Shown piece by piece: positions 42,152 to 64,000 of a stretch of DNA of 64,000 nucleotides. The DNA comes from a virus (Duplodnaviria > Heunggongvirae > Uroviricota > Caudoviricetes). Numbering within the stretch: the first letter of the stretch is position 1; every line of letters starts with the position of its first letter. The stretch lies in IMG/VR virus record IMGVR_UViG_2703718819_000006; one strand, given 5' to 3'. Under the pieces are notes generated by a model, which did not search any database, was not told the origin of the DNA, and saw only the letters and a list, made by a program, of their open reading frames with translations. Both the position numbers and the translations under genes were made by a program.

Positions 42152-42745
42152 CTAAGCAACCTTCTTTGATGGTCTTTTTTTCCTGATCACATTCGCAGGA
42201 TCATACCCTCCCAGACTTTTCATGACGTCCAAAGGGATCTTGCTTATAGAGTGCCCAGCGTCCTGACAGAATCCTCGAAAAACAACGAGCATACTGCCAC
42301 CTGGGTTGATGTTTACTTCTACCTGACCCAGATTGACGTCAGGCTCGACAAACGCTACGCGGCCACCAGACAGAATAATCGTCTCATTCGCACACTCTGT
42401 TGCACGCTCATACCACTTTGTATCTAGGGATTGAGGAATTAGCATCACTGTTGTAACTCCGCGAGCCTGCTCACGTATAGCAGCATCAATCCAGGGGGAG
42501 ATTTTGGAGTAGGGTGGATTGAGGAAGGCAATTGTACCTGGCTGTCCCCATTCAGATTTCAAAGCATCACGCTCAATGCCTATGAAATTAGGCAGCTTTG
42601 CGTTGTCCTTGTTGCAGGCAACGTCAACATCAAATGTCACTCCAAGATAACGTTGAATGGCAGAAAACAGCCAATCAGGTGTTCTCCAGAGGTCACGAAG
42701 AGAGTTGTCGCGCTTTCGCTGTTTGATTTTTTCGGCTGCAATCAT
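42152..42745 (-). CDS. phage-type N6-adenine DNA methyltransferase (Dam-like)
   Basis: 197 aa; WRTPDWLF...LNPPYS motifs. Confidence 0.7.
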   Translation of the reverse strand: MIAAEKIKQRKRDNSLRDLWRTPDWLFSAIQRYLGVTFDVDVACNKDNAKLPNFIGIERDALKSEWGQPGTIAFLNPPYSKISPWIDAAIREQARGVTTVMLIPQSLDTKWYERATECANETIILSGGRVAFVEPDVNLGQVEVNINPGGSMLVVFRGFCQDAGHSISKIPLDVMKSLGGYDPANVIRKKRPSKKVA

Positions 42746-49947: not shown

Positions 49948-52263
49948 TCAGATTTTGCAGGCTCCGTCGCACTCATCTTCTGGCTCGACGGCTACAGCTT
50001 GCGTCAGTGGATTCTGCGGTTCGTCGTCATCACGCTTTCCTGCCCCATCTCTGGTGTTGTGGTAGTAAAGCGTTTTAACTCCCATCTTGTAGGCGAGAAG
50101 CAAATCTGACAGTAGCGTCATCATTGGGACTTTATCGCCTTCAAAGCGAGAAGGGTCATAGTTGGTATTGGCTGAAATAGCCTGGTCAAAGAACTTCTGG
50201 ATGATCGCCACCTTTGTCAGATAGCCGCGGTTGTCCGGCATATCCCACAGGTATTCATACTGTTCCTTCAGTTTTTCAAACTCAGGCACGACCATCTTGA
50301 CGATGCCGTCCTTAGAAGATTTCACTGACACCGGGCCACGAGGCGGTTCGATGCCGTTGGTGGAATTAGTGATCTGGCTGGAAGTCTCGCATGGCATTTG
50401 TGCCGTCAGTGTGGAGTTGCGAAGGCCGTATTTTGCAATACGTTCACGCAGTTCTTCCCACGGCATCTTTAACTCAAAGTTGGTTTCGCCACTTTCGTCT
50501 AATGAAGAACGGTAATGGTCGATCGGCAACTGACCAATTGCGTATTTGGTCTGCTCAAACCAGTCACACTCACCTTTTGCTTCAGCAAGTCGGCAGCTGG
50601 CATCAAGAAGGTAATACTGGATAGCTTCGAACGTTTCATGCACCAGTTTATTGCCAGCGGTATCAGAATAACGAACGCCATTCTTTGCCAGGTAATAAGC
50701 AAAGTTGGTTACACCAATTCCCAAGCTACGACGAGCTTTGGCAGGCACTTCGGCTGCCTCCATCGGATAGTCTTGATAATCCAGTAACGAATCCAGTGCA
50801 GCAACGGCATAGAACGCCACCTCTTTAAGAGACTCCAGTGAACGGATGGCTCCGAGGTTAAAAGCGGATAAAGTGCATAGCGCGATCTCACCGTTCGGGT
50901 CGTCGGTAAATGCCAGTGGACGGGTGGGTAGGGTGATCTCCATACACAGGTTTGACTGGCGAACAGGTGCAAGAGCAGGAATGAAAGCGCCATGCTCATT
51001 AATATGATCGACGTTCGCAATATAAATTCGGCCCGTGGACGCTCGTTCCTGCATCAGAGATGAGAACAGCTCAATGGCAGGTACTGACTTCTTGCGAATT
51101 GAATCATCGGCTTCGTATTTATGGTACAGCTTTTCAAACAGCTCCTGGTCTGTGAAGAAGGCTTCGTACATATCAGGCACATCATGCGGGCTGAACAGAG
51201 TGATGTTCTCGCTTCTGACGAGTCGACGGTACATTAGACGGTTACTCATGACGCCGTAATCAAGATGGCGAACGCGGTTTTCATCAATACCACGGTTATT
51301 TTTCACCACCAGCAGACTTTCAACTTCAAGATGCCAGATCGGGTAAAACGCTGTTGCTGCGCCACCACGAACACCACCTTGCGAACAAGATTTAACAGCC
51401 GTCTGGAAATGCTTCAGGAATGGAATAACTCCAGTATGGGTGGCTTCACCATTGCGGATCTCGCTGCCCAGCGCACGGATACGGCCAAAACCAATACCAA
51501 TTCCAGCACGACGTGAAACGTAGTCGATAATTGCGGCTGAAGCTGCACTAATCCCTTTCAGACTATCGCCAGACTCAATCAGCACACAACTGGAGAACTG
51601 ACGGGTTGGAGTACGGACGCCGGCCATGATTGGTGTGGGCAGAGACAGTTTGAACGTACTTGTAACGTCATAGAAACCTTTGACCATCTCCATACGTGTT
51701 TTGCCAGCGCAGTCGTCTTCCCAATTCTGGAACAGACACATGCCTACCAGCATATAGATATGTTGCGGTCCCTCATGAATCTCACCAGTAACACGGTTTT
51801 GAACGAGGTATTTGCTTTGCAACTGCACCGTAGCTGCATAGCCAAAAAGATCGTCACGTTTCGGCTTAATGTAATTGCCGAGTTCTTCGATCTCTTCAAA
51901 CGAATAATGTGTCAGCAAATCCTTGTCATAAACGCCCTTGTTAACGTTCTTGACAATGTGTTGGTAGAAGTTCGGATAGTCGTAACGACCGAAGGCATCT
52001 TTGCGGATTTTAAAAATGTTCAGGCGGGCAGCCACCTGTGAGTAATTTGGTGCTTCTGGTGAGATCAAATCAGCGGCAGATTTAACCAAAGCCTCATGCA
52101 ACTGGCTGGTGGTCATCCCATCAAAAATGCTGGCCGCAGCTCCCATTGCTACAGCGGATGCGCTTACACCACGAATGCCTTCTACGCCATACATTACGAC
52201 GCGGTTGTATTTTTCTTCGGATAACGGCTCTGTTTGGCCGTTACGTTTTACGATGCTTATCAT
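49948..52263 (-). CDS. nrdA: ribonucleotide reductase class Ia alpha subunit
   Basis: 771 aa; ATP-cone N-terminus, active-site region SSCVLIE..., NLCMEI, C-terminal Cys pair (CDGACKI). Confidence 0.9.
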   Translation of the reverse strand: MISIVKRNGQTEPLSEEKYNRVVMYGVEGIRGVSASAVAMGAAASIFDGMTTSQLHEALVKSAADLISPEAPNYSQVAARLNIFKIRKDAFGRYDYPNFYQHIVKNVNKGVYDKDLLTHYSFEEIEELGNYIKPKRDDLFGYAATVQLQSKYLVQNRVTGEIHEGPQHIYMLVGMCLFQNWEDDCAGKTRMEMVKGFYDVTSTFKLSLPTPIMAGVRTPTRQFSSCVLIESGDSLKGISAASAAIIDYVSRRAGIGIGFGRIRALGSEIRNGEATHTGVIPFLKHFQTAVKSCSQGGVRGGAATAFYPIWHLEVESLLVVKNNRGIDENRVRHLDYGVMSNRLMYRRLVRSENITLFSPHDVPDMYEAFFTDQELFEKLYHKYEADDSIRKKSVPAIELFSSLMQERASTGRIYIANVDHINEHGAFIPALAPVRQSNLCMEITLPTRPLAFTDDPNGEIALCTLSAFNLGAIRSLESLKEVAFYAVAALDSLLDYQDYPMEAAEVPAKARRSLGIGVTNFAYYLAKNGVRYSDTAGNKLVHETFEAIQYYLLDASCRLAEAKGECDWFEQTKYAIGQLPIDHYRSSLDESGETNFELKMPWEELRERIAKYGLRNSTLTAQMPCETSSQITNSTNGIEPPRGPVSVKSSKDGIVKMVVPEFEKLKEQYEYLWDMPDNRGYLTKVAIIQKFFDQAISANTNYDPSRFEGDKVPMMTLLSDLLLAYKMGVKTLYYHNTRDGAGKRDDDEPQNPLTQAVAVEPEDECDGACKI

Positions 52264-52310
52264 GTATCACCAAATAAAGAGGGCCACTAAATATAGTGGC
52301 TCATGTTAAT

Positions 52311-52330
52311 AGATAAGCACTTACCTATCA
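52311..52330. promoter_or_regulatory. family-2 palindrome TAGATAAGCACTTACCTATC
   Basis: Upstream of nrdA start. Confidence 0.45.
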
Positions 52331-52336
52331 ATGAAA

Positions 52337-52906
52337 TCAAATGAGAGACTTAAGAACATCGCGCACCTGGCGGAACTGATCTGTTTGCATACCGGTATGG
52401 ATGGCAGCCACCGCATCAGCCAAATGTTCGTTTTTGTTCACGAGAACATCCTGTCCAGATTGCTTACGACGCAGCCACGGTGCTTTAGGGTGTTTTTTCG
52501 TAGCCCACTGGATAATCTCTTCTTTCGATGTAGTAAGTTTATTGCCGACAAAATGCTTGATTTCGTTTGGAGTAACCTGGATCAATGGCTTATCCACACA
52601 CGCAAGTACACCGATACAAATACCGTAAGACGTCTGCGAACGAGAGTTTTGGCTCCCAACCGGTAGCTCACAAAAAACCATATTTGCCTTATCAATGATT
52701 GGCTTCGCAACACGCCATATTTCACTGGCTCGGCGCAGATCGTCACTGTTCACACGAACGGTCTTTTTGTTACTCCCCGCTTTAGTCTCAACAAGAGTAA
52801 GGCCGTGAATCTCAAGTTCGTCCGTCTCAAGGTCTAAAGTGCCCACAGCAAGCCCAAAGTTGCTCATTGAGGGATCAACACCAACTACGCTGATTTTTTT
52901 ACTCAT
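52337..52906 (-). CDS. RuvC-like Holliday junction resolvase
   Basis: 189 aa; N-terminal VVGVDPSMSNFGLAV resembles RuvC ILGIDPGSRVTGYGV; acidic residues at expected positions. Confidence 0.55.
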   Translation of the reverse strand: MSKKISVVGVDPSMSNFGLAVGTLDLETDELEIHGLTLVETKAGSNKKTVRVNSDDLRRASEIWRVAKPIIDKANMVFCELPVGSQNSRSQTSYGICIGVLACVDKPLIQVTPNEIKHFVGNKLTTSKEEIIQWATKKHPKAPWLRRKQSGQDVLVNKNEHLADAVAAIHTGMQTDQFRQVRDVLKSLI

Positions 52907-52915
52907 ATAGTCTCC

Positions 52916-53659
52916 TTACCATGTTCCCCATATAGGGTTTTCCAATAATCTCGCCTCCAACGAATTGGCTACTATTGCCGTTTGCAACGTTGGTTGGGGA
53001 TAGTTTGCAAAGTCTGAATACTCATTTTCCTGCGTGACACGTTTATCTGCGGCATGTTTAACACCACTTGCTATGAAATGACGCATGATGCCCAACAGCC
53101 TCCGACTGTCTGCACTATCGTTTGCTAAAACATGAGGGAGCTGAAGTTCGATTTCTACCATTTCTCCATACTTACCAACAAACTGTAGTTTGTCCGCACT
53201 GTACTTTTTATCCCTCCTTTGGATAAGGAAACCAGTAAAAGCATCACCTGGCGATGCCAAACTATCCACCCGCTTATTGGCAAGTCGAATAAGGTTCGTG
53301 AAAGCCATACAGTGATGCGCACCCATTCCCCCAAAGAACCCTTCGCTATTAATGTTAAGATCTTCAGTTTCATGGGATGCAATAAACCCAGGCCCGACGT
53401 TGGGAAGATATCCCCCCTCAACAAAAGGATTAATCAGGATCGGCGCAATACATCCAGGTGGTAGTGATTTCAAACTTTGCATCAATGGCGTCTCGGATAT
53501 TAGACCAAGCAACGCGGCGAATTGTACTCCGTCAATATTGTTGCTGCCCCACAGAATACGTGGAGCCGCACCATTGGAAGTATGCCCATTGATCAGTTTT
53601 ATCGACTGCATCACTGCAAATACCTGCAAAAACTGCGAGCGGCTTAATTTAAACGACAT
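52916..53659 (-). CDS. hypothetical protein
   Basis: 247 aa; overlaps SbcC stop by 11 bp. Confidence 0.4.
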   Translation of the reverse strand: MSFKLSRSQFLQVFAVMQSIKLINGHTSNGAAPRILWGSNNIDGVQFAALLGLISETPLMQSLKSLPPGCIAPILINPFVEGGYLPNVGPGFIASHETEDLNINSEGFFGGMGAHHCMAFTNLIRLANKRVDSLASPGDAFTGFLIQRRDKKYSADKLQFVGKYGEMVEIELQLPHVLANDSADSRRLLGIMRHFIASGVKHAADKRVTQENEYSDFANYPQPTLQTAIVANSLEARLLENPIWGTW

Positions 53660-55565
53660 AGCTGCGCCCCTCTTTAACTTCCAGCGTAATAGTTTCCCGG
53701 AACCATGACTTCATCTCTTTATGGGAGATAATCAGCACAGTACCTCGCTCGCGAGCTTTGGACTCCAAAATACCCATGAGGCGTTCAAGACCGGCTGTAT
53801 CGAGTGCATCGTCAATTTCGTCGCCGATAAACAAATCGATGTTTTTACTCGCCCGGTTACTAACCAGATCCTGCAATGCCAAAGAACACGCAATGCGAAC
53901 CTTCCGCTTCTCACCACCAGAGAGGGTCTGGAACGACTTACTTGAACCTTTCTTCTGCACACTAATGTTGAATTTGTCGCGATACTCACCTTTTTTAGTG
54001 ACATCCATCGTCGACCACTCAGCAGTAATATTCCCGTCAGACAACGTATTGAGATACTCGGCAGTGCGTGTATTCAGGAAAGGCGTAACAGACGTCAAAA
54101 TATGAGAACGCACCCCGGCAGGAGAGTAGACCTGACGAGCTTTTTCCAATAGCAACGTTTGTTCCTGAATAGCCTTCAACTCATCTTTTAAGGACTTGAA
54201 GGTAGACTTACTGGATACCAGGTTATCTTCGTGTCTGGCGATAAGAGCAATAAACGGATTAATCTCTTTTGATATACGATCGACCTCAGTACGAGCACGA
54301 GTCACAAGAGACTCAATAGCAACAACCTCCTTCTCACGATGACGCAAAGATGAGAGTTGTTTCGTAAGCTCTTCAATCCGGGCAATGATAGCCGTTACAT
54401 CAGGTGTCGTTTTAACAAGGGCAGACTCAATGCTTAACGCCTTCTCAAGATTCGTTTTGTGTTTAGCCATTGCCTCTGCAAGTGTCTTCGCCTGACCAAT
54501 TTCCTGACGTGCTTGTTCAATGAAATTCTCCTTCACCGTTGATAGATCTTCTTCGCAGTAGGCTTTGCCACAAGTAGGGCATGGTGATCCCACTTTAGTA
54601 CCAACCTCTTCTGCTTTGGTCTTAAAATTACGCGCGCGGTTCATTGCATCAGCCTGACTATTTTCTGTAGCGTTGATGCTTGCCCGAATATCAGTTATCG
54701 CACCACGAACTTTGAGCAACTTGGCGTCATGTTCTTCTTTTGAGGCTAACTTTTTGCGCTCACTTTCGATTGCCTTCTCGGTATCACGGATCTGTTCGGG
54801 AAGAGTGCGGATCTCAAGTTCAACTTCCGTTAACTCAACTTCGGCACTGGCCAGCCCAGCCAGGGCATCGTCATAACGTTTAGAACGCTCTTGCTCCCAT
54901 GATTCAGAGGAGGCTTTCGCTGACTCAATTTCTGACTGTGTTGCCTCAATGGTCGAGATTGTCGACTCCAATTTGGTTTTAACCACATCCATACGTGCGG
55001 CAGCTGCATTAGCTCGCTCACGAGCAATAGCGTAGGCGCGTGTCAGTCTGTCAACGCCAGCGGCTTCTTCTACGATGGTTTTGAGGTTTTTGTCGGACAT
55101 TCCAGGTAAATCTGGCATAGCTTCTTGGCTCGCATAGATGGAAGCCATGAAAACCTCTTTAGATGCACCGATCAGACGCTCGACGAACTCTTGCGTCAGC
55201 GCATCTTTGCCTTTCGTCATATCGCCGTCTTCACCACGAACGATAAGCCGATTTTTGAACTCTTTGTGTTTACGGTGACGAATGATCGCATATCTCTTGC
55301 CTTCATCCTCGATGGTTACTGCAACACGACAGTTCTTTTCATGGTCGGTAGACAACACATCGTCACCCTTCACACCATGAGCTGTTTCGCCATAAAGACA
55401 CCACATCAGGCTATTCATTAGCGTTGACTTTCCAGAGCCATTACTTGATGCGGAACTATCATCACTATTAACACCCTGAATGAGTACTAAACCACGCTGA
55501 TCTAACTCGACCTCCGCGCTGGCGATAGCCATAAAATTCTCAACCTGGAGCTTTAAAAACTTCAT
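53649..55565 (-). CDS. sbcC: SbcC/Rad50-like recombination ATPase
   Basis: 638 aa; Walker A GSNGSGKST, central coiled coil with CPTC zinc hook, signature LSGGEKRKV, Walker B LFIGDEIDDALD. Confidence 0.8.
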   Translation of the reverse strand: MKFLKLQVENFMAIASAEVELDQRGLVLIQGVNSDDSSASSNGSGKSTLMNSLMWCLYGETAHGVKGDDVLSTDHEKNCRVAVTIEDEGKRYAIIRHRKHKEFKNRLIVRGEDGDMTKGKDALTQEFVERLIGASKEVFMASIYASQEAMPDLPGMSDKNLKTIVEEAAGVDRLTRAYAIARERANAAAARMDVVKTKLESTISTIEATQSEIESAKASSESWEQERSKRYDDALAGLASAEVELTEVELEIRTLPEQIRDTEKAIESERKKLASKEEHDAKLLKVRGAITDIRASINATENSQADAMNRARNFKTKAEEVGTKVGSPCPTCGKAYCEEDLSTVKENFIEQARQEIGQAKTLAEAMAKHKTNLEKALSIESALVKTTPDVTAIIARIEELTKQLSSLRHREKEVVAIESLVTRARTEVDRISKEINPFIALIARHEDNLVSSKSTFKSLKDELKAIQEQTLLLEKARQVYSPAGVRSHILTSVTPFLNTRTAEYLNTLSDGNITAEWSTMDVTKKGEYRDKFNISVQKKGSSKSFQTLSGGEKRKVRIACSLALQDLVSNRASKNIDLFIGDEIDDALDTAGLERLMGILESKARERGTVLIISHKEMKSWFRETITLEVKEGRSYVV

Positions 55566-55794
55566 ATAACACCTTTGATACCGTGTGTTAGCTTTTGACC
55601 TTCTTTCAATCTGAACTCCGTATGCGCCGGGAAGGATCTGCGCCTCAATACGCCTTTTCTGGTTAACCTTCCAAGATAAAACGCTACGGGATTTCCTTGT
55701 GGCGGGTAGGGCTTGTGAAACATCACCGTCTGGCCTCGTTCAAGTCTTTTCATCGTGATGGCAAAGTCTCGAAAGCTCCCATAACGACTTTGCC

Positions 55795-56880
55795 TCACAC
55801 AGCCTCCGAACTCTCCGCTTCGGTGAGGATTTCCTGACACAAAATATCCAACTTGCTTAGATCAAATCCGCCGTCAGTATCGTGGACAATCTTGCAATAA
55901 GCAGATACCGACTCTCCCAGGCTATCGATTTTGCTGGTTTCCGTTGTGCTTGCTGTCCCTTCCATCATTGATGACTTACGGATGAAGTTGCACACGACAC
56001 CTTTTGCACCCATTGTTTTGAGGATGTTCTGGTACTTAATGCCTTCTTCATCGTTCTCAATTACGGCGCGGAAACGCACGTAGTTGCCGCGAATTTGGTC
56101 ATCGGCAACATAATCTTCCAGGTTAATGAATTTAGGCGCACTGGTTTCGTAGTGACTGAAACTGCCGTCCGGGTTTACGATCATGTAACCAGCCAGAGAT
56201 CCAACATCTCCCCAATTTTGATGGGTCAGCGCACCGACACTGATAACTCCAGGAATGACCTCTTTGTGGTTGTGGTAATGCCCACTAAGCACGAGACGAA
56301 AGCCGATATCCTTTAACTCCTGCGCATCGATACCGACGTCAGGCATTGTTGGAATGGCTTTGTTAATGGATGTATGGATAACAACGTCATGATTATCACC
56401 TTCTACGCTCTTACGTAATGCTTTCAGATCGCTGATAAGCTCCGCATGATTGTTACGCCAGCTAATCAGGTGGACAGTCACATCACCAATTTTTATTGAG
56501 TGTGGGCGTTTGCCACATACGATTACCACGCCGATAGAACTCAGCGATGCTGCTGCGTTGGCGCTATATACTGAATCGTTGGTTTCAAGATCGTGATTAC
56601 CGGCCAGCATTACTACTGTCAGATCAAGCTCGTTGATAATCCACTTGTACGTTTCAGTTACGTAATGCAAAACAGAAGGGGACACAGTTCCTCGGACGTG
56701 AAATGTATCACCGGCAATCAGCATGTACTTACAACCGGCCTTCTTCATGGCGATGGCTGCTTCTTTCGTTGCTTCCAACTGTATTTCAAGTCTGGAGTTA
56801 AGCCCCTCAGCGTTCGTCGTGGAGAACGCATCCCATTTGTGGTAGTGGCAGTCAGAAATGACGCCGTATGGCAAAGTCAT
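55795..56880 (-). CDS. sbcD: SbcD/Mre11-like nuclease
   Basis: 361 aa; phosphoesterase motifs DCHYH, GDTFH, GNHD, SGHYH. Confidence 0.8.
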   Translation of the reverse strand: MTLPYGVISDCHYHKWDAFSTTNAEGLNSRLEIQLEATKEAAIAMKKAGCKYMLIAGDTFHVRGTVSPSVLHYVTETYKWIINELDLTVVMLAGNHDLETNDSVYSANAAASLSSIGVVIVCGKRPHSIKIGDVTVHLISWRNNHAELISDLKALRKSVEGDNHDVVIHTSINKAIPTMPDVGIDAQELKDIGFRLVLSGHYHNHKEVIPGVISVGALTHQNWGDVGSLAGYMIVNPDGSFSHYETSAPKFINLEDYVADDQIRGNYVRFRAVIENDEEGIKYQNILKTMGAKGVVCNFIRKSSMMEGTASTTETSKIDSLGESVSAYCKIVHDTDGGFDLSKLDILCQEILTEAESSEAV

Positions 56881-56992
56881 GTGTTTTTCCTTTGTGGTTA
56901 TTTTGATACAAATTTTAAGAGCAATGAGAAGGTAAACAACTATGCATAACGGTATGTTAGGAATGAAACGAGCGCATTAATATACAAAATTT

Positions 56993-57012
56993 ATAAGTAA
57001 GTATATACCTAT
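56993..57012. promoter_or_regulatory. family-2 palindrome-like ATAAGTAAGTATATACCTAT
   Basis: Upstream of sbcD start. Confidence 0.35.
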
Positions 57013-57134
57013 TTGTTGTGACGCAACTTTGCTTGTCTGTATGACTAAAAATAAGACAGGATCACTGTAGAACGCTATGAGAGCTATTTTGAGGGGGCGT
57101 AGATTCTATCTACGCCAATATACGATCTGGAGGG

Positions 57135-57779
57135 TTACAGCGCGTCAGTGGGCTTTTTACGCGCTGCGTTTATGCTTATGACGCCAGCTTTTGGACGTGG
57201 GTCAACAAGGTTAAGCTCTTCTTCACTGTGGTATTCGAGGTCGAACTCACGTTTTACATGTCTGATGTAGATTGCGGTGAGTAGGCTATCTTTGGTCAAA
57301 AAGTGTCCGTAGGATTTGCGGATCACTTCTTCAACCTTCTCGATTTTCTCACCACCCATGCAGAGGTGATTAAACCGGCTGTGTTTCCGCAACATCTCGT
57401 CAACTGGGCCTGAGTAAACCTTGTCTACTTTCCCAAAACGAATGATTTTTCCTGTATCTGCGGATACAAGGCAAATCAGTTTGTCTGGTGATAAACGATC
57501 TCGCCACGTCACACCTGAACGGAGTGTGTTGAAGTAGGGGGCATCCAATCCGATGATCGGTTTACGAAATGCGAGCAATGGAACGTACCTAATACAACTA
57601 TTCAAATGAAAGTTCACACCAGCCTTATCAAGTTTAATTCTGGTTTCGTAGATCGGGCACTTCGCCGCTATACCGCAGATATCACAAAGTAACTTCTGCT
57701 TATTCAGGTTGGAATTTGATTCGATAGTGTAGGAGCCGTCCTCAAGACGACGAACCCAGCGCGTGCGTTTTAGATCCAT
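57135..57779 (-). CDS. hypothetical protein
   Basis: 214 aa. Confidence 0.4.
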   Translation of the reverse strand: MDLKRTRWVRRLEDGSYTIESNSNLNKQKLLCDICGIAAKCPIYETRIKLDKAGVNFHLNSCIRYVPLLAFRKPIIGLDAPYFNTLRSGVTWRDRLSPDKLICLVSADTGKIIRFGKVDKVYSGPVDEMLRKHSRFNHLCMGGEKIEKVEEVIRKSYGHFLTKDSLLTAIYIRHVKREFDLEYHSEEELNLVDPRPKAGVISINAARKKPTDAL

Positions 57780-57978
57780 AATCGTTTTTTCAGTAGTTAT
57801 TGGCCGATGCTACGATAACTCATTAGGCATACCTTAATCTGCATTTGCCTGTTTACTTATCCCAGTTATCCACTGGATAGATCCAAATAAGAGATCCCAA
57901 GTAAGATCAAATAGAAGATCCAAAGAGATCCCCGATCGCCTCTAGCCGTTGCGGTTACTGGTCTGAAAGGGTGTTGCC

Positions 57979-58080
57979 ATCCACTATGGAGAGCAAAGAA
58001 ACCTCTGTAGAGAGCTGAATAACCGCTATGAAGAGTAAAACAACCACTCTGGAGAGCTGTATATATCCACTGTAGAGAGT
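57979..58080. repeat. iteron array A: five 16-bp repeats (A/T)(T/A)CC(A/G)CT(A/G)T(A/G)GAGAG(C/T) at 21-bp phasing
   Basis: Units at 57979, 58000, 58021, 58042, 58065. Confidence 0.75.
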
Positions 58081-58238
58081 AGAGCACATTGTCTTTTATG
58101 GATAACTTAATGACTTAATTCTTCATTAACATACTGATATACATAGATATATTTTAAACTCTACTCTTAGTCATGATTCTTATGTCCTTAAATATCCACA
58201 GAAGAGTAGAGTTACCTGTTCTTGAAATCCTCTGATTT

Positions 58239-58247
58239 TTATCCACA
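58239..58247 (+). promoter_or_regulatory. consensus DnaA box TTATCCACA
   Basis: Exact 9-mer between AT-rich tract (58085-58200) and iteron array B; second near-consensus box TTATCCACT at 57866-57874. Confidence 0.55.
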
Positions 58248-58358
58248 GGCCCGATCCAGTAATTCAGATCACAAAGAGAACCAAAGAGACCCATAAAGAC
58301 CCAATAAGATCCCCGCCCACCTCAAACCGTTGTGCCATCTGCCTTCAGACATGATCGA

Positions 58359-58481
58359 TATCCACTATAGAGAGCGAATAATCCACTATAGGGAGCAAAG
58401 CAACCACTATAGAGAGGAGAAAAACCACTATAGACGGTAGGATAACCGCTGTGATGAGTGCTACTATCCACTGTAATCAGC
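58359..58481. repeat. iteron array B: six repeats ATCCACTATAGAGAGC-type at 21-22 bp phasing, directly upstream of rep
   Basis: Units at 58359, 58381, 58402, 58423, 58444, 58466. Confidence 0.75.
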
Positions 58482-58521
58482 AAAGGCCACCAAAGCCGTC
58501 GAATAACAAGAGACATTTGGA

Positions 58522-59577
58522 ATGAGCGAAAACGGCAATAAAAACATAGCGATCGTTGAAGCATTTTCAGAAACAGATAAAAAGACAGGCGAAGTTGTTA
58601 CGTTGGTTCCTAACACTAATAACACTGTTCAGCCTGTTGCTTTGATGCGTCTGGGCCTCTTCGTTCCGACGCTGAAATCGACATCCAGAGGAAGAAAGGG
58701 GCAAATGGTCTCTATGGATGCCTCTGCTGAACTCAAACAGCTGTCTCTGGCAAAAGCCGAAGGGTACGAAGACATAAGGATCTCTGGCCTTCGGCTTGAT
58801 ATGGATAACGACTTTAAAACGTGGGTGGGAATAATCCACGCGTTTGCCAAACACAAGGTCGTTGGCGATACTGTCACGTTGCCGTTCGTTGAGTTTGTAA
58901 GGCTGTGTGGCATTCCGACCGCCAGGTCATCAGCGAAGTTACGCAAACGCCTGGACAGTTCGCTAAGCCGTATTGCCACAAACACCATCTCGTTCCGTAG
59001 CAAAGGCTCTGATGAGTTTTACGTAACGCATCTTGTGCAAACGGCAAAATATAGTGTCAAGCACGATACGGTCGAACTGAAAGCAGATCCCAAGATTTTC
59101 GAACTCTACCAGTTCGACAAAAAGGTTCTTCTGCAACTCCGGGCTATAAACGAACTCTCAAGAAAAGAATCCGCTCAGGCGCTTTATACTTTTATTGAAA
59201 GTTTGCCGCCTGATCCGGCACCAATATCACTAGCCCGTTTACGCGCCAGACTTAATCTGACAAGTCGCACTATTACTCAGAATGCGACGGTAAGAAAGGC
59301 TATGGAACAGCTGCGAGAGATAGGATATCTCGATTACACGGAAGTTAAGCGCGGAAACTCGGTCTACTTCGTCATCCACTATAGGCGGCCAAAGTTACGC
59401 CAGGCACAAATATCAACAAAAATCGATAATGATGAGACGGAATATAGCCTCCCAGATGAGAATCAAGATGACATTATCGACGTTGTGCCTGACGAAAAAG
59501 AAGGCAAAATGGTCATGTTGAGTAAAGAAGAACTGGCACTTCTCGAAGAGTTGCGCAAGGCAAAGACTCGCAAATAG
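58522..59577 (+). CDS. iteron-binding replication initiator (Rep)
   Basis: 351 aa plus-strand ORF flanked on both sides by iteron arrays with DnaA box and AT-rich tract; assignment by architecture. Confidence 0.6.
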
Positions 59578-59579
59578 CC

Positions 59580-60060
59580 CAACCACTGTAGTTAGTAGTA
59601 AGGCTCACTATCCACTGTAGTGAGCCTTACTTATATCTGTAATTCGCTATCCACTATAGTGAGTATCGTTATCTGTTGATAACCACTGTAGGCAGTAGAA
59701 TGCAAATACTGAATTAAATGTTAGTGATCACTAACACTGATGAAACAAGGGCTGCGAGGTTAGTGGTCACTGGGTATCTTGGAAAATTTACTGTCTATAG
59801 TGGTTGTTGTCGCCCTCATCTTTGAGCGTATCCACTGTGGCGAGTGGATATCCACTGAAAACAGCAAAGGCTTACTCACCATAGTGGATACCCGCTGGAC
59901 ATCTCACTCCAATACTCACCATAGTGGTTGTTTGATGCGAATGAAAGGCTGTCTACTCGCTACAGTGGTTAGCAGATATGTAGGAAGGTTTTGTTACTGA
60001 CTACAGTGGATAATGAGCTGGATACGAATGCGGTGAGCAGACTACTCACCGCAGTGGTTG
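59580..60060. repeat. downstream iteron-like cluster (CCACTGTAG / CCACTATAG cores in both orientations, at least 10 units)
   Basis: Seen in sequence; includes palindrome TAAGGCTCACTATCCACTGTAGTGAGCCTTA at 59600-59630. Confidence 0.65.
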
Positions 60061-60278
60061 GTGCTATTAGTGTATTTTCTTCAACAGACCCCAAAGTGTT
60101 CAGGCTTTTGTAGTCAGTTTTCCTGTTTCTGGATCGTACATACGCCATTCACGCCGCTGGTGGACGATATACCCATCTTCACGTTCCAGACGCTCAAGAA
60201 TGCCAGGCTGCTTGAAACCCTTAGCACGCCAGTAGCCGCTTGTTTTCTCGATTTCCAGACCTGCCAGTGTTAATGCCA

Positions 60279-60614
60279 TTATCCAACCTCCTTGCAGTCA
60301 TCGAAAAGGTAGCTTTGCTGAGAAGCGTGAACGCCATAGAAGCCCTTGTATTTGTTGTATACGAAGTGGTCTTCTCCGACGCCGGTTAATTTGCCATTAC
60401 GGTTTGTGAGATATGGGGATGACAACACTCGATCGTCACGCACAACATAGAACTGGTCGCCGCTGTCTACGACCATCGCTCCATATGGTGCTTTTATGAC
60501 GTCGGTAAGAGCGCCATTCTTAACGTCGGCTACAGACATTTCACACTGATAAACAGTGGTGTCGGCCACAACGATCGAAGAAAGGAACAACAGCGCAAAT
60601 GGGATGGCCTTCAT
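60279..60614 (-). CDS. small secreted protein
   Basis: 111 aa with N-terminal signal-peptide-like segment. Confidence 0.4.
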   Translation of the reverse strand: MKAIPFALLFLSSIVVADTTVYQCEMSVADVKNGALTDVIKAPYGAMVVDSGDQFYVVRDDRVLSSPYLTNRNGKLTGVGEDHFVYNKYKGFYGVHASQQSYLFDDCKEVG

Positions 60615-60790
60615 GCTGCCACCTCTTTGATTACATCAAATGCTGAATTAAATACGAGCACGATAGCCAAAGCGTTTATGACTACGTCGTTCACCGGGGA
60701 AAAGACTTTACGAATGACACCAGTGAAAATGCAGTCGATGACAAAAGCTATTGACACGATGAGTAACAAGTATTCAATAAAAATCTTCAT
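60611..60790 (-). CDS. small hydrophobic membrane protein (59 aa)
   Basis: Own translation MKIFIEYLLLIVSIAFVIDCIFTGV...; ATGA stop/start overlap with downstream gene; below ORF-track cutoff. Confidence 0.3.
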   Translation of the reverse strand: MKIFIEYLLLIVSIAFVIDCIFTGVIRKVFSPVNDVVINALAIVLVFNSAFDVIKEVAA

Positions 60791-60829
60791 GATAGGTAGA
60801 TACTAACTTATATAAATTTTACTGTAAAC

Positions 60830-61105
60830 TCACTCAAAAGTGCTGATGCTTAAAATACGCTCAAGATGTGCGGCATCTTCATCACTGATTTGTTGAGTCT
60901 CTTCTACGTACCAACAGTTGCCGTTATGCCAACAAACACCATCATCATCAACCATCACTGAATCAGCGTCATGACCTGTATATTCAACGAGAATACGCTG
61001 GATCAGTGCGTCAGTTTCTTCGTCGTTAAGGCCATCGGCTTTGACCATAAAAAGCGGAAACACGTCATAGACAGTGCTGGTAACGATTCGAACTAAAACT
61101 CTCAT
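60830..61105 (-). CDS. hypothetical acidic protein
   Basis: 91 aa. Confidence 0.35.
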   Translation of the reverse strand: MRVLVRIVTSTVYDVFPLFMVKADGLNDEETDALIQRILVEYTGHDADSVMVDDDGVCWHNGNCWYVEETQQISDEDAAHLERILSISTFE

Positions 61106-61160
61106 GTGTTTTTCCTTTTGTGGTTAGTGTTTACTTATTTTGTTAGTTATGAATAGGCGA

Positions 61161-61586
61161 TCAATCATCTTGTTTAGGGAAAAACTGTTCAATAACTCTG
61201 TCAACGGCTGTGTCTATATGGAGTAGATGCCACACAACCATATCTTTGCTCCCCATGCCTTGTGTGAATATCACGTCATACTTACGCCATGCGCAGTGGA
61301 ACCAATATGCTGAGTCATCAATTGGTAAATCCTCTCCCGCCTCTTTGAAGTATTTCAGCAGCATTGCTTGCTCTGCCGTTGGCGTTGGACCTATTTCCTG
61401 AGCGTACATACGGATAAATCGCTGCCAGTCTGTCTCGTCGGTGGTCGGATCTGGTGGATTCATTTCGGCGATAGCGTTTCGTAGCTGATGCGCCCAATCA
61501 GGTTCAGGAAAGCCTTTTGATACTTCATCATCAATAACATCCAGAGCCGCGTTTGCGGCATCGTAGAGTTTCTTAATTGCTGCCAT
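61161..61586 (-). CDS. hypothetical protein
   Basis: 141 aa. Confidence 0.4.
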   Translation of the reverse strand: MAAIKKLYDAANAALDVIDDEVSKGFPEPDWAHQLRNAIAEMNPPDPTTDETDWQRFIRMYAQEIGPTPTAEQAMLLKYFKEAGEDLPIDDSAYWFHCAWRKYDVIFTQGMGSKDMVVWHLLHIDTAVDRVIEQFFPKQDD

Positions 61587-61647
61587 GTTTACTTCTCCTT
61601 ATAAATAGGAAAATAATCACCTTTGAAAAAATAAAGCAAAGATATAT

Positions 61648-62037
61648 TCACTCCGATACAAGACGTTTATATGCTTCGATGTCTCGACGTGCTTCACCGA
61701 GTTTTCTTCTTAGGTCCATATTTTCTGATTCAAGTTTTTCAATGTTTTTTTGGTATCGGCCACGATGTTCTTCCCAGGCATCCTGATATGCCTTCATATA
61801 TGTCGTATTAGCCTTTCTTTTTGCCTGACGAACCGCGTGGTGATTTTCTACAAACCAGTCAGGGTCGTTAAATGCTGCTCTTGCGCATTTATACCAATAA
61901 TCGGTTGACTCTCTGTTTAACCAATGAATGGTGATAAATGGTAATCGAATAGACAGAATTTTTCGTTTGGAATCTCGCTCACCAAACATATGCCCTTTTT
62001 TTATCTTTAAACCGAACCCAGGTTGAATTAAAAGCAT
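61648..62037 (-). CDS. hypothetical protein
   Basis: 129 aa. Confidence 0.4.
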   Translation of the reverse strand: MLLIQPGFGLKIKKGHMFGERDSKRKILSIRLPFITIHWLNRESTDYWYKCARAAFNDPDWFVENHHAVRQAKRKANTTYMKAYQDAWEEHRGRYQKNIEKLESENMDLRRKLGEARRDIEAYKRLVSE

Positions 62038-62057
62038 TGTCAGTACCTCAGATGCAT

Positions 62058-62798
62058 TTATGGCAGTAATTCTTTACCGCTTTCCATTTTGGTGATAGAG
62101 ACAGTAGGATCATCGTTAATGCATGATTCTGTGCCTAATGCTGCTAACCCTTTACGCATAACCGTGCCCGCAACATACGCCTCAATCTCCGCCTTTCCAG
62201 ATGAGACAATTTCATCCATTTGTTCCTGCATTAATTCGGTAGCAAAGCACAGATTTTCAGGAAGGTTAGCTACAGCAGATGCTAGTTTTCTATATAGTTC
62301 TTCAAGGTCACGTTTTCCAGCTCTTCCTTTTTTCACAAGTTCACCTAGCTCTGAAACTTGCTGATTAAGTCGATCAATCTCACTATTCGTAGCGGCCTTT
62401 ATTTGATCGTTGAATTTTTGCCGAATACTTTTTTGCTCGGCAATATCATGAACTCTAATTGAGTCTCCAATGGTTTTATATGAAATAGTGCATGGCACAC
62501 CTTCGCCCACTCCAAAACTGCTAACCATAGCAGCCCATTGTGCCTGGCTAAGTCTAATTTCAACTAAAGGCCGTCTATTGCAACTTCTTTGTGGGCGGGT
62601 TCGTTCATTGTCTAAGGACAGTTCCGCCTCGTAAACGCCTATTTCAATATAGTCTCTATGTTCCAGTTCTGAATCAAATAGGCGAATGCCAGTTGTGCTA
62701 ACACGGCTTGTTTTCACAAGACCGAACGCTGGATGTGTTTGAATTTTTTCCCCATGTTTATTAAGGGTCGTTTTTGGTTCTTCAATTTTTCTTTTCAC
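62058..62798 (-). CDS. hypothetical protein
   Basis: 246 aa. Confidence 0.4.
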   Translation of the reverse strand: MKRKIEEPKTTLNKHGEKIQTHPAFGLVKTSRVSTTGIRLFDSELEHRDYIEIGVYEAELSLDNERTRPQRSCNRRPLVEIRLSQAQWAAMVSSFGVGEGVPCTISYKTIGDSIRVHDIAEQKSIRQKFNDQIKAATNSEIDRLNQQVSELGELVKKGRAGKRDLEELYRKLASAVANLPENLCFATELMQEQMDEIVSSGKAEIEAYVAGTVMRKGLAALGTESCINDDPTVSITKMESGKELLP

Positions 62799-62844
62799 CT
62801 TATTAACCTCTATGCTTCATGCGTAAAGCTAAATGACAATTTTT

Positions 62845-63669
62845 TTAATATCCGGCGTATTCGTATTCTTCATTTAGACCGTATTCTTGTGGAGTGATAC
62901 CAGGACAACATAACTCAAAGGCGAACTTGCGCCATTTGATTTTTTCTTCTGACGATTGTTTGTTATTCGCCGGTGCAATGTAGTCATATTCCCATTTGCC
63001 GTTGCGAAGTAAAATGAATCCGCAGTTATTGCCGAAGTCTTCGTCTGCATAACGTATTACAAACTCAAGGTGCGGGAACTTTCTAGCCATCGCTTGATAA
63101 ATTGGTTTTGGCATAGACCAGGCTGTTTCAAAGCGAATCACCAACTCACCACCAGTTGCGGCATGTCTTGCAAGACGTTTTTTATAGATTCGTTTTGCAT
63201 ATGCTCGAACGTGTGTATGGCGGAAATTATGGCCGTACTTAATACGTGTAGGGATACGTTTTACGGGCATTTCGATGTTGTAGGCATTCCATTTTGTTCC
63301 CCAATTAGCTCGCGACCAGTCAAACCATGAGTAATAGCCATAGCGACGATAATTCTCAAGCCGCATAAGAGCCTGCTCTTTGATTTTGCGAATTTCCTTG
63401 CGTGTCATTCCTGATTCACGCATAGCTAATTCGATCTGTTCTGGAGTCTTTAATTCACCGAACATGTGGTCGTAAACTGTTTCGCCCGCCATTGCAGAGG
63501 CCATGCGCCTGATATGATTGTTTTCTTCCATTTCTATACTTTTCGGACGTCTGCAAATGGTATTAAAGTCAATTAGACCTTTTTTGTTAGTTATGGCACG
63601 TATGAAATCTAAGCGTTGTTTATTTGTACCACCTATGACTCGGATTTCGTTTGTAATGTGGTTGGGCAT
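62845..63669 (-). CDS. hypothetical protein (Trp-rich motif SWFDWSRANWGTKW)
   Basis: 274 aa; family-1 motif upstream. Confidence 0.4.
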   Translation of the reverse strand: MPNHITNEIRVIGGTNKQRLDFIRAITNKKGLIDFNTICRRPKSIEMEENNHIRRMASAMAGETVYDHMFGELKTPEQIELAMRESGMTRKEIRKIKEQALMRLENYRRYGYYSWFDWSRANWGTKWNAYNIEMPVKRIPTRIKYGHNFRHTHVRAYAKRIYKKRLARHAATGGELVIRFETAWSMPKPIYQAMARKFPHLEFVIRYADEDFGNNCGFILLRNGKWEYDYIAPANNKQSSEEKIKWRKFAFELCCPGITPQEYGLNEEYEYAGY

Positions 63670-63686
63670 AATTAACTTAACCTTTT

Positions 63687-63701
63687 AACAAATTGTTTTC
63701 T
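63687..63701. promoter_or_regulatory. family-1 motif AACAAATTGTTTTCT
   Basis: Upstream of 63669 start. Confidence 0.5.
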
Positions 63702-63764
63702 TGTGTGTGATAATAACGAGAATAAAACGGCGTCCAACTGGACGCCTGATCTTCTTAATGAGAG

Positions 63765-64000
63765 TTATTTCACTGTAATGAAAGGAGTGTTAGCCCCTTG
63801 AGTCATGTACTGCGGTAACTGGCCATTCCATTTATTGATGGCTTCCAGCTCCATAACGTTCGGGTTTTGACGCAGAGCTTCACCGCGCAGACGAATGGCG
63901 TCGGCTTCTGCTTGCGCACGAGCACGGATAGCATCAGCTTCACCATTAGCCTGTTCACGTAGCATATTCGCCTCAGCTTTACGCTGTTCAACTTCCTGCT
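63765..64000 (-). CDS. C-terminal part of a longer protein, possibly SPFH/band-7-like (5' end beyond window)
   Basis: Ala/Glu/Arg-rich C-terminus (EADAIRARAQAEADAIRLRGEA...NPNV) resembles HflC/K-type tails; frame probably continues past 64000. Confidence 0.25.
   Translation of the reverse strand, partial: QEVEQRKAEANMLREQANGEADAIRARAQAEADAIRLRGEALRQNPNVMELEAINKWNGQLPQYMTQGANTPFITVK

Follow-up and report, generated by a model that had tools for sequence, protein, structure and literature searches.

Organization of the locus

The window (i.e., the whole 64,000-nt stretch of DNA analyzed, IMG/VR virus record IMGVR_UViG_2703718819_000006) contains a repA gene enclosed by repeats, with the following features; strand is given where it applies.

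57857..57874, plus strand: DnaA-box pair of module 1, a degenerate TTATCCCAG (57857-57865) followed by TTATCCACT (57866-57874), 8/9 against TTATCCACA
57880..57937: GATC-heptamer tract of module 1, six GATC at 57880, 57893, 57905, 57917, 57927, and 57934 (spacings 13, 12, 12, 10, and 7 bp)
57941..57977: GC-rich spacer of module 1 between the GATC tract and the iterons, 57% GC
57979..58079, plus strand: iteron block 1, five direct iterons at 57979, 58000, 58021, 58042, and 58065 (spacing 21/21/21/23), kept in relatives
58086..58238: inter-module spacer, 28% GC, with a reverse 8/9 DnaA box (58097-58105) and an iteron/DnaA-like ATATCCACA at 58192
58239..58247, plus strand: DnaA box of module 2, a perfect TTATCCACA
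58248..58315: degenerate heptamer tract of module 2, GATC at 58253, 58267, and 58308, three central heptamers changed to GAACC/GACCC
58360..58480, plus strand: iteron block 2, six direct iterons at 58360, 58381, 58402, 58423, 58444, and 58466 (spacing 21/21/21/21/22)
58522..59577 (including the stop codon), plus strand: repA, 351-aa Rep_3-family initiator
59374..59388, plus strand: intragenic iteron-like 15-mer ATCCACTATAGGCGG, inside repA at codons I-H-Y-R-R
59581..60059: putative downstream control array (incA-like), 11 full iterons and one half-iteron
59581, 59610, 59649, 59681, and 59830: direct iterons of the downstream array, with the half-iteron at 59850
59791-59805, 59875-59889, 59915-59929, 59956-59970, 59997-60011, and 60045-60059: inverted iterons of the downstream array
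42152..42745, minus strand: Dam-family N6-adenine methyltransferase gene (PF05869, E = 6.2e-38, 130.6 bits, cut-off 28.1)

The original prediction had called this region an iteron-type plasmid replicon, and all of the elements that it listed are present at the positions it gave them and exceed chance expectation. Scanning the window for the iteron motif AWCCACTRTAG with at most one mismatch returned 22 matches, compared with 2.68 ± 1.46 expected from 100 shuffles, none of which reached 22; 19 of the 22 fall in 57,979-60,011. Upstream of repA lie 11 iterons spaced by 21-23 bp (approximately two helical turns), and downstream of it the motif search gives 11-12 copies, which are putative RepA sites. 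The number and the phasing of the upstream iterons are as predicted, but they form two blocks of five and six, separated by a 295-bp gap, rather than a single array. Relatives were searched with a phase-aware detector of iteron arrays; an 11-mer detector allowing up to two mismatches misses degenerate copies.

Residues 115-225 of RepA match the Pfam domain Rep3_N (PF01051, WH1; E = 1.3e-10, 42.2 bits, cut-off 22.4), and residues 236-281 match Rep3_C (PF21205, WH2; E = 1.3e-4, 22.6 bits, cut-off 21.1), so that the predicted rep gene carries both Rep_3 domains above their cut-offs. The protein is 100% identical to RepA of Cyrano, 91% identical to that of SSU5, 61-64% identical to the classical IncFIB Rep (E about 1e-113), and, over residues 40-293, 47.5% identical to RepA of P1 and P7 (E = 1e-71). 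Comparison of Rep with known initiator families, proposed along with the original prediction, thus recovered homology, and the Pfam domains together with the P1 similarity settle the family membership at the level of sequence. No relevant match among all PDB chains was found with RepA, either as a sequence or as an eight-member profile, and an NCBIfam search with RepA gave no match. The single-sequence AlphaFold2 model has a mean pLDDT of 38.8, too low for a fold search.

A tandem pair of origin modules

An origin module, composed of a DnaA box, GATC heptamers, a GC spacer, and five to six iterons, occurs twice in tandem upstream of repA (57857-58079 and 58239-58480). The two copies align with each other, and since each iteron block is preceded by its own DnaA box and GATC-heptamer tract, the module resembling P1 oriR is present in duplicate. 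The predicted DnaA boxes are all located within 57,857-58,247: one perfect, three matching at 8/9 positions (57866 and 58192 on the plus strand, 58097 on the minus strand), and one degenerate. The perfect box at 58239 is one of only two in the window, the other being at 52590. In an alignment with P1 oriR, the box pair of module 1 falls on the site annotated there for DnaA binding, and the stretch TTATCCACTGGATAGATCCAA is identical.

The GATC cluster was likewise predicted correctly: six sites in 58 bp constitute the densest accumulation anywhere in the 64 kb, the runner-up among 100-bp intervals having four. This tract of module 1 corresponds by homology to the five Dam sites annotated in P1 oriR and is a putative Dam/SeqA-controlled opening region. 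SSU5, pMT1, and E. coli S56 plasmid B retain all six sites, and Pantoea retains five; the adjoining GC-rich spacer is conserved at 84% between the window and SSU5-group relatives. In module 2, an additional GATC (58353) follows the heptamer tract, which is the best conserved non-coding block of the replicon (93% to relatives of the SSU5 group, versus 78% for the distal tract).

The AT-rich tract noted earlier is indeed present, with a 60-nt minimum of 20% GC versus 46% for the whole window, but it is located between the iteron blocks rather than ahead of them. It forms the least conserved block (63% to relatives), and its counterpart in SSU5, pMT1, S56, and Pantoea has 39-49% GC. The tract is therefore lineage-specific and was rejected as a conserved unwinding element. 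Also inside this spacer is the strongest sigma-70-like match of the region (58126-58153, 10/12). Scanning with promoter and terminator consensus sequences yielded nothing better than weak matches in block 2 and did not locate the repA promoter; by likeness to P1 incC, block 2 is presumed to carry the repA promoter/operator, as the GenBank annotation of P1 places the PrepA hexamers inside the rep-proximal iterons. No site matching the IHF consensus WATCAANNNNTTR was found within the replicon. When 57,700-60,200 was compared with Rfam at E ≤ 1, no RNA family matched, which gives no sign of an antisense-RNA control system.

Both modules are conserved in SSU5, pMT1, S56, Kluyvera, Buttiauxella, Rahnella, Erwinia, Pantoea, Cedecea, and Xenorhabdus, while the two-module layout is absent from P1, classical FIB, and Klebsiella SSU5-like elements. 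Among the relatives compared, the distal array is always accompanied by a DnaA box and 5-7 GATC, and the proximal array by 2-5 GATC or none; in Entomohabitans, Scandinavium, Franconibacter, and Phytobacter, the proximal array is reduced to iterons near the start codon. A division of labour between the modules is about evenly balanced between being right and wrong: the distal module (57857-58079), with all six Dam sites, might be the main initiation site, and the proximal one (58239-58480), with three heptamer GATCs lost, might serve mainly as repA operator and pairing partner.

The reverse assignment, in which the rep-proximal module is the functional origin, has a smaller but appreciable likelihood. 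The distal module would then be auxiliary, either as a second conditional origin or as an extra Dam/SeqA and RepA control locus pairing with the origin. The origin directly adjoins repA in all single-module relatives (P1, classical FIB, Klebsiella FIB, Klebsiella SSU5-like phage, and CMS-2020a), the proximal module contains the only perfect DnaA box of the replicon, and its heptamer tract leads the non-coding conservation in the SSU5 group; all three observations speak against the distal module as the origin. On the other hand, three of the six heptamer GATCs are gone from the proximal tract here, and several related lineages are entirely without a DnaA box and GATC tract in the proximal module, whereas the distal array retains both throughout.

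It is tentatively suggested, as a rather unlikely extension, that having two origins in tandem is a functional novelty of a large branch of the P1/RepFIB family in enterobacteria (SSU5, pHCM2, pMT1, Cyrano, and plasmids of Rahnella, Erwinia/Pantoea, Cedecea, Buttiauxella, and Xenorhabdus). The distal origin, with its full set of Dam sites, might be combined with a proximal copy acting as a partly methylation-insensitive operator/pairing site, or the two might be alternative origins used according to condition (Dam/SeqA status; plasmid versus induced state). As a linked suggestion, the DnaA box and GATC heptamers, the conserved portion of the origin on which host factors act, may be a homologous-recombination joint at which phage-plasmid backbones exchange replicon specificity cassettes. 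To our knowledge, no work on the P1, F, or RepFIB paradigms describes a division of labour or alternative paired origins. No description of the tandem double module was found in the literature consulted, although a prior one may exist.

Plasmid maintenance, typing, and exchange of the replicon

The region 57,780-60,120 shows 99.8% DNA identity to Escherichia phage Cyrano (pLF82), and the replicon shows approximately 83% to SSU5, pHCM2-type Salmonella plasmids, and pMT1. For Cyrano/pLF82, a copy number of about 5.5 per chromosome was measured, and siphovirus particles have been attributed to it (PMC9928086). In complete E. coli genomes, 225 matching places were found in 182 of 5,426, all of them on plasmids and none chromosomal. 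In PLSDB, the replicon is carried by 382 plasmids, of which 360 are non-mobilizable. Near-identical circular plasmids of approximately 107 kb have IncFIB as their sole replicon type. Both records inspected for MOB-suite/PLSDB typing, i.e., CP088831 (99.8% identical) and Y. pestis pMT, are IncFIB without any other replicon. Typing tools include the SSU5 (IncFIB) replication genes, and 'IncFIB(pLF82-PhagePlasmid)' is a PlasmidFinder type whose label appears in 13 papers.

Judged by its sequence, the segment 57,857-60,059 is the plasmid-replication module of an SSU5/Cyrano-type E. coli phage-plasmid, in which repA is flanked by putative binding repeats and preceded by a P1-like origin. Membership in the SSU5 supergroup is by proxy, through the plasmid-borne E. 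coli matches, the copies and particles of Cyrano, and a backbone 94-99% identical to phages CMS-2020a, PhiR41_1, and Cyrano. Very probably, then, the locus is the maintenance replicon of a plasmid-prophage of the SSU5 supergroup: of the Cyrano/pLF82 replicon type, typed IncFIB, theta-type and iteron-controlled, a member of the P1 oriR/RepFIB family, and an exchangeable cassette. The phage-plasmid lifestyle proposed earlier is supported by the identity to Cyrano, the plasmid location of the E. coli matches, and the IncFIB typing. The replicon itself is already catalogued, and its phage-plasmid reading is likewise already known.

It is highly improbable that the locus is instead an origin of the phage lytic cycle, even though the element is a phage with annotated replication and recombination genes of its own nearby. 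Iteron/Rep_3 replicons with downstream control iterons limit copy number by design, and the P1 homologue, oriR, is a plasmid origin. Moreover, the carrier plasmids are typed by this locus, which is the only recognised replicon in the records inspected, and pMT1 of Y. pestis is stably kept as a plasmid with the same replicon. Just as improbable is a decayed, non-functional remnant in an element that is maintained by another replicon. The degenerate first DnaA box of module 1 and the GATC sites missing from module 2 could be taken as signs of decay, for which a precedent exists in the FIB replicon of F itself, defective owing to a weak ribosome-binding site (PMC11983097). However, repA is intact and encodes a protein unchanged from that of Cyrano, the non-coding architecture is conserved across genera, and typing of the near-identical plasmid and of pMT gives IncFIB alone.

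High identity to CMS-2020a stops at about 57,780 and restarts at 60,049; between these points, RepA is only 48.8% identical. The whole replicon (about 57,780-60,049) behaves as a swappable cassette in a mosaic backbone, the remainder of the window being closer to phage CMS-2020a than to Cyrano, from which the mosaic nature of the backbone follows. Incompatibility with classical FIB plasmids is doubtful, because the iteron cores differ (ATCCACT versus ATAAACT/ATAAGCT) and the Rep proteins share only the 61-64% identity given above.

The downstream array and a model of replication control

The trailing iteron cluster noted in the original prediction consists of five direct and six inverted full copies, the inverted ones being 40-47 bp apart, in addition to the half-iteron. 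A palindrome is located at 59,843-59,856. The 15-nt core of the repeats is shared with the origin iterons, and the array is conserved in SSU5, pMT1, and S56 with varying copy number. The intragenic iteron-like 15-mer occurs at the same position (+852) in these three relatives. In FIB replicons, downstream iterons alone suffice to displace a plasmid, while upstream iterons are associated with the origin (PMC11983097). By this analogy, we infer that the array present here acts as a copy-control/incompatibility locus. A partition centromere with ParB/ParR-type sites is a highly improbable reading of these repeats: arrays of direct or inverted repeats beside maintenance genes can be centromeres and par directly follows incA in P1, yet the repeats have the core of the origin iterons, the next genes are small hypothetical ORFs with no par genes adjoining the array, and the homologous FIB array acts on replication (PMC11983097).

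Homology to P1 and RepFIB makes the following sequence of events likely. Monomers of RepA would bind to the iterons that precede repA at a phase of 21 bp, and host DnaA to the adjacent box or boxes; the two proteins would jointly open the GATC-heptamer tract beside them. For P1 and RepFIB, Dam methylation of this tract is required, and SeqA sequestration follows firing; Dam dependence is known for P1 oriR and the RepFIB replicon (pColV-K30 REPI). RepA bound to the rep-proximal iterons would repress the repA promoter. For a Dam/DnaA requirement and for RepA autorepression, both putative in this replicon, the sequence prerequisites are seen here (the GATC tract, the DnaA boxes, and iterons beside repA). 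The 11-12 downstream iterons, like P1 incA or the E-K repeats of FIB, would titrate RepA and handcuff the origin iterons, and titration and handcuffing together would restrict the element to few copies (about 5 per chromosome in Cyrano). The element encodes, as previously proposed, its own Dam-like methyltransferase: the minus-strand gene matching PF05869, whose Cyrano counterpart is annotated as 'Adenine methyltransferase'. This enzyme might act in trans as a partner of the GATC tract.

The replicon probably lets a temperate phage of the SSU5/Cyrano type persist as a low-copy plasmid in E. coli, and closely related replicons reside on Salmonella pHCM2-type plasmids and on pMT1, the virulence plasmid of Y. 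pestis. Typing tools also use this replicon as the marker for assigning such elements to IncFIB. Its exact anatomy helps in the design of curing/incompatibility cassettes (in FIB replicons, the downstream iterons alone being the effective part) and in the interpretation of copy-number shifts of genes on phage-plasmids, and guards against mistaking 'IncFIB' matches for F-like conjugative plasmids. The double-origin layout and the replicon exchange are modest additions, which could guide work on the diversification of iteron replicons and on escape from incompatibility.

Comparison with known systems

The closest counterpart, the replicon of Cyrano (pLF82), differs by an indel of a single base (57851) and by a small number of substitutions. 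SSU5, pMT1, and pHCM2-type plasmids, with RepA at 91% protein identity, share the two-module origin and the downstream array, although the arrays of SSU5 and S56 have more iterons than the one described here.

The P1 replicon likewise belongs to a phage-plasmid and presents its elements in the same order (oriR with incC, repA, incA); its annotation comprises a DnaA site, five Dam sites, five iterons with PrepA, repA, and nine incA iterons. The DnaA/GATC part of oriR has approximately 85% DNA identity to the origin-left sequence here, and the GC spacer and five 21-22-bp-phased iterons follow in shared order. The iterons themselves differ (GATGTGTGCTGGAGGGAAA in P1 versus ATCCACTRTAGAGAG here), and P1 has one origin module where two are present here. 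Its RepA has 286 aa (861-nt CDS) versus 351 aa, with similarity limited to residues 40-293. Unlike in P1, some of the downstream iterons are inverted and approximately 41 bp apart, and no par operon is adjacent.

In classical RepFIB (P307, F, pO157, and pColV-K30 REPI), repA likewise has origin iterons on its upstream side and control iterons on its downstream side; a DnaA box and five GATC sites also precede it. The origin-left sequence is 86% identical to that of module 2, and the iteron core is related (ATAAACTGTAG versus ATCCACTGTAG). However, classical RepFIB has a single origin module, its iterons differ at positions that probably set specificity, and its hosts are conjugative F-like plasmids, not phage-plasmids.

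The SSU5-like phage-plasmids of Klebsiella and E. coli of the pKpn/CMS-2020a type carry an alternative cassette at the equivalent genomic position, flanked by the ASCH-domain gene and the cra-like gene. The origin-left sequence is shared (91% identity for the Klebsiella SSU5-like origin) and RepA is homologous (although only 49-51% identical), whereas the iteron is different (GTATGCTGTCAGCGGTAA) and there is a single origin module.

An IncFIB-type phage-plasmid replicon

The replicon is already known, ordinary and catalogued. Positions 57,780-60,120 are 99.8% identical to the E. coli phage-plasmid Cyrano (pLF82), in which the ORF is annotated as RepA, and ~83% identical to SSU5. In PLSDB, 382 plasmids match, from Escherichia, Enterobacter, Yersinia (pMT1), Salmonella (pHCM2-type), and Citrobacter; 360 of them are non-mobilizable. 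IncFIB is the sole replicon typed in Y. pestis pMT and in a circular plasmid of 107 kb that is 99.8% identical; typing tools already contain SSU5 (IncFIB) replication genes, and the label 'IncFIB(pLF82-PhagePlasmid)' is routinely used. A search of 5,426 complete E. coli genomes gave 225 matching places, every one on a plasmid and none on a chromosome. The near-identity to Cyrano, the typing and this distribution support the original prediction of a plasmid replicon and a phage-plasmid lifestyle. Cyrano is kept at a copy number of ~5.5 per chromosome, and siphovirus particles resembling SSU5 have been attributed to it (PMC9928086). The additions to the known replicon are a duplicated origin module, a non-conserved AT tract and cassette behaviour.

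Sequence reading and ORF listing give a single long plus-strand ORF (58,522-59,577, 351 aa) within 57,300-60,600, the predicted rep gene. Its product, the initiator RepA, exceeds the Pfam cut-offs for Rep3_N (42.2 bits, cut-off 22.4) and Rep3_C (22.6 bits, cut-off 21.1). In tblastn, it is 100% identical to Cyrano RepA and 91% to SSU5 RepA; comparison with known initiators gives 47.5% identity to P1 and P7 RepA (E = 1e-71) and 61-64% to classical IncFIB Rep. RepA has no match in NCBIfam. Since PDB sequence and profile searches gave no match and the single-sequence AlphaFold model is too poor for use, family membership is assigned from Pfam and P1/FIB homology. Residues 293-351 (window 59398-59574) form a C-terminal extension of ~60 aa, acidic and then helical, with a sub-threshold match to Pfam T4_y05I_C (17.5 bits, cut-off 27). 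P1 RepA is shorter (286 aa), and its likeness to the window RepA is confined to residues 40-293.

Iterons and host-factor sites

Both non-coding flanks of repA (~740 and ~480 bp) are crowded with one repeat, whose core, A(T/A)CCACT(A/G)T(A/G)G-(G)AG, occurs in 23 full copies at the locus. Counted over the whole window with at most one mismatch, the 11-mer AWCCACTRTAG has 22 matches (19 within the replicon locus), versus 2.68 +/- 1.46 in shuffled controls.

Features of the replicon (iterons are copies of the core repeat, listed by position)
57866, 58097 (minus strand), 58192: DnaA boxes, 8/9 sequence matches
57880-57937: GATC cluster, six sites in 58 bp, densest of the window
57979, 58000, 58021, 58042, 58065: iteron block 1 (starts), five direct copies
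58086-58238: AT-rich stretch between the modules, 28% GC
58239: perfect DnaA box, TTATCCACA, module 2
58360, 58381, 58402, 58423, 58444, 58466: iteron block 2 (starts), six direct copies
59374-59388: iteron-like 15-mer ATCCACTATAGGCGG inside repA, codons I-H-Y-R-R
59581, 59610, 59649, 59681, 59830: downstream direct iterons, five
59720-59735: palindrome GTTAGTGATCACTAAC
59791, 59875, 59915, 59956, 59997, 60045: downstream inverted iterons, six
59843-59856: palindrome AGTGGATATCCACT
59850: downstream half-iteron

The predicted DnaA boxes, GATC cluster and AT-rich tract are thus all present, as is the trailing iteron cluster. Of the proposed array of 11 phased iterons, the count and the phasing hold (21-23 bp, two helical turns), but the copies form two blocks of five and six rather than a single array. 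The AT-rich spacer is the least conserved block, with 39-49% GC in relatives, and a conserved unwinding element is therefore ruled out there; by analogy with P1-type origins, opening would be expected in the heptamer tract (the GATC repeat units). This spacer also holds the locus's best sigma-70-like match (58126-58153; TTAACA, 16 nt, TATATT; 10/12), oriented toward module 2 and repA. Visual inspection of the aligned SSU5/pMT1 stretch shows no comparable hexamers, and a promoter scan of the locus gave no convincing assignment for repA. The replicon has zero IHF consensus sites, and the locus no Rfam family. As predicted, the element encodes a Dam-family methylase (42,152-42,745, PF05869); Dam is also supplied by the E. 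coli host.

SSU5, pMT1, and S56 have the intragenic 15-mer at the identical position (+852). Its CTATAG is completed by the rare Arg codon AGR in 9 of ~16 lineages with a CCACT-type iteron, whereas CGN is used by those whose iteron is of another type (classical FIB, Klebsiella FIB, P1). The 15-mer may be a selected candidate RepA site or a coincidence.

In the downstream array, the inverted iterons are 40-47 bp apart. The palindrome AGTGGATATCCACT is an inverted half-iteron pair, kept only in part among relatives; such pairs are the operator type used by Rep_3 dimers (F, pPS10, pSC101). GTTAGTGATCACTAAC has GATC at its centre and is peculiar to the window's lineage. Mid-array, the non-iteron block AAGGGCTGCGAGGTTAGTGGTCACTGGGT (59747-59775) is near-invariant in the window, SSU5, pMT1, and S56 plasmid B: this four-sequence comparison gives two single-sequence substitutions, both in S56, with variable spacers on either side. 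The block could be a promoter or could bind another factor. Directly 3' of the repA stop codon, an inverted repeat (59590-59638; 21-nt arms, 86% complementary, 7 nt between) surrounds the second downstream iteron. This repeat may serve as the terminator of repA, and bound RepA could overlap it.

A two-module origin

Each upstream iteron block follows its own DnaA box, heptamer tract and GC-rich spacer, and the two modules (57,845-58,095, distal, and 58,218-58,490, proximal to repA) align over their full length. In module 2, three of the six heptamer GATCs are replaced by GAACC or GACCC. The layout recurs position for position in SSU5, pMT1, E. coli S56 plasmid B, Kluyvera, and Buttiauxella, and is recognisable in Rahnella, Erwinia, Pantoea, Cedecea, and Xenorhabdus replicons with Rep 62-77% identical. 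The second module is missing from P1, classical FIB, Klebsiella FIB, a Klebsiella SSU5-like phage, the E. coli phage CMS-2020a, and a Pantoea lineage whose iteron differs. In all single-module replicons compared, the lone module abuts repA.

The distal array keeps a DnaA box and 5-7 GATC throughout the two-module clade, whereas the proximal array has 2-5 GATC and, in Entomohabitans, Scandinavium, Franconibacter, and Phytobacter, consists only of iterons near the start codon. This pattern favours a distal origin with a proximal operator. On the other side, the proximal module holds the only perfect DnaA box, and no other non-coding block in the SSU5 group is as well conserved as its heptamer tract (93% versus 78% for the distal tract). 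Because of these two features, a division of labour into distal origin and proximal operator has only roughly even odds against the rival reading in which the proximal module fires.

An exchangeable cassette in a mosaic backbone

The element is a mosaic. Window positions 1-25,000 best match CMS-2020a (97.6%; PhiR41_1, 94%), and the replicon region (52000-64000 side) is 99-99.8% identical to Cyrano.

Genes flanking the replicon
53649-56880: SbcD/SbcC-like nuclease pair, Metallophos match, left of the replicon
57135-57779, minus strand: ASCH-domain protein gene, immediately left of the replicon, no Pfam match here
60100-60279, minus strand: cra-like small ORF, 59 aa versus the 70-aa 'P1 Cra protein' in Cyrano

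The cra-like ORF is shortened by an A at 60102 (C in Cyrano), which creates an earlier stop codon. The left flank (ASCH-domain gene and nuclease pair) shares ~98% identity with phage-plasmids bearing a different replicon. High identity to CMS-2020a reaches ~57,780, the start of the ASCH-domain gene, and returns at 60,049 in the cra-like gene; between these limits, CMS-2020a carries in the same slot a RepA only 48.8% identical, and a single origin module with different iterons. The entire replicon thus behaves as an exchangeable cassette, judged by where identity stops and returns, and its limits nearly coincide with those originally predicted for the replicon (57850-60060). In the left part of module 1, Klebsiella/P1-like stretches are mixed with SSU5-like ones, which suggests recombination inside the origin's conserved host-factor part.

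Comparison with P1 and classical FIB replicons

Dam dependence is established in the literature for P1 oriR and the RepFIB (REPI) replicon. FIB replicons have origin-associated iterons upstream, and the downstream block alone is enough to displace a plasmid, which supports the handcuffing model (PMC11983097). The GenBank record of P1 lists in oriR a DnaA-binding site, five Dam sites, five iterons, repA and nine incA iterons; the oriR iterons are annotated as incC, spaced 21-22 bp, with PrepA inside. The DnaA/GATC part of module 1 aligns with P1 oriR at the DNA level (~85% identity overall, with the stretch TTATCCACTGGATAGATCCAA identical), whereas the iteron sequences are unrelated and P1 has one origin module instead of two. 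The origin-left part of module 2 is closest to classical FIB (86%), which also has one module only. The replication mechanism of the window replicon would accordingly resemble that of these close, well-studied homologues.
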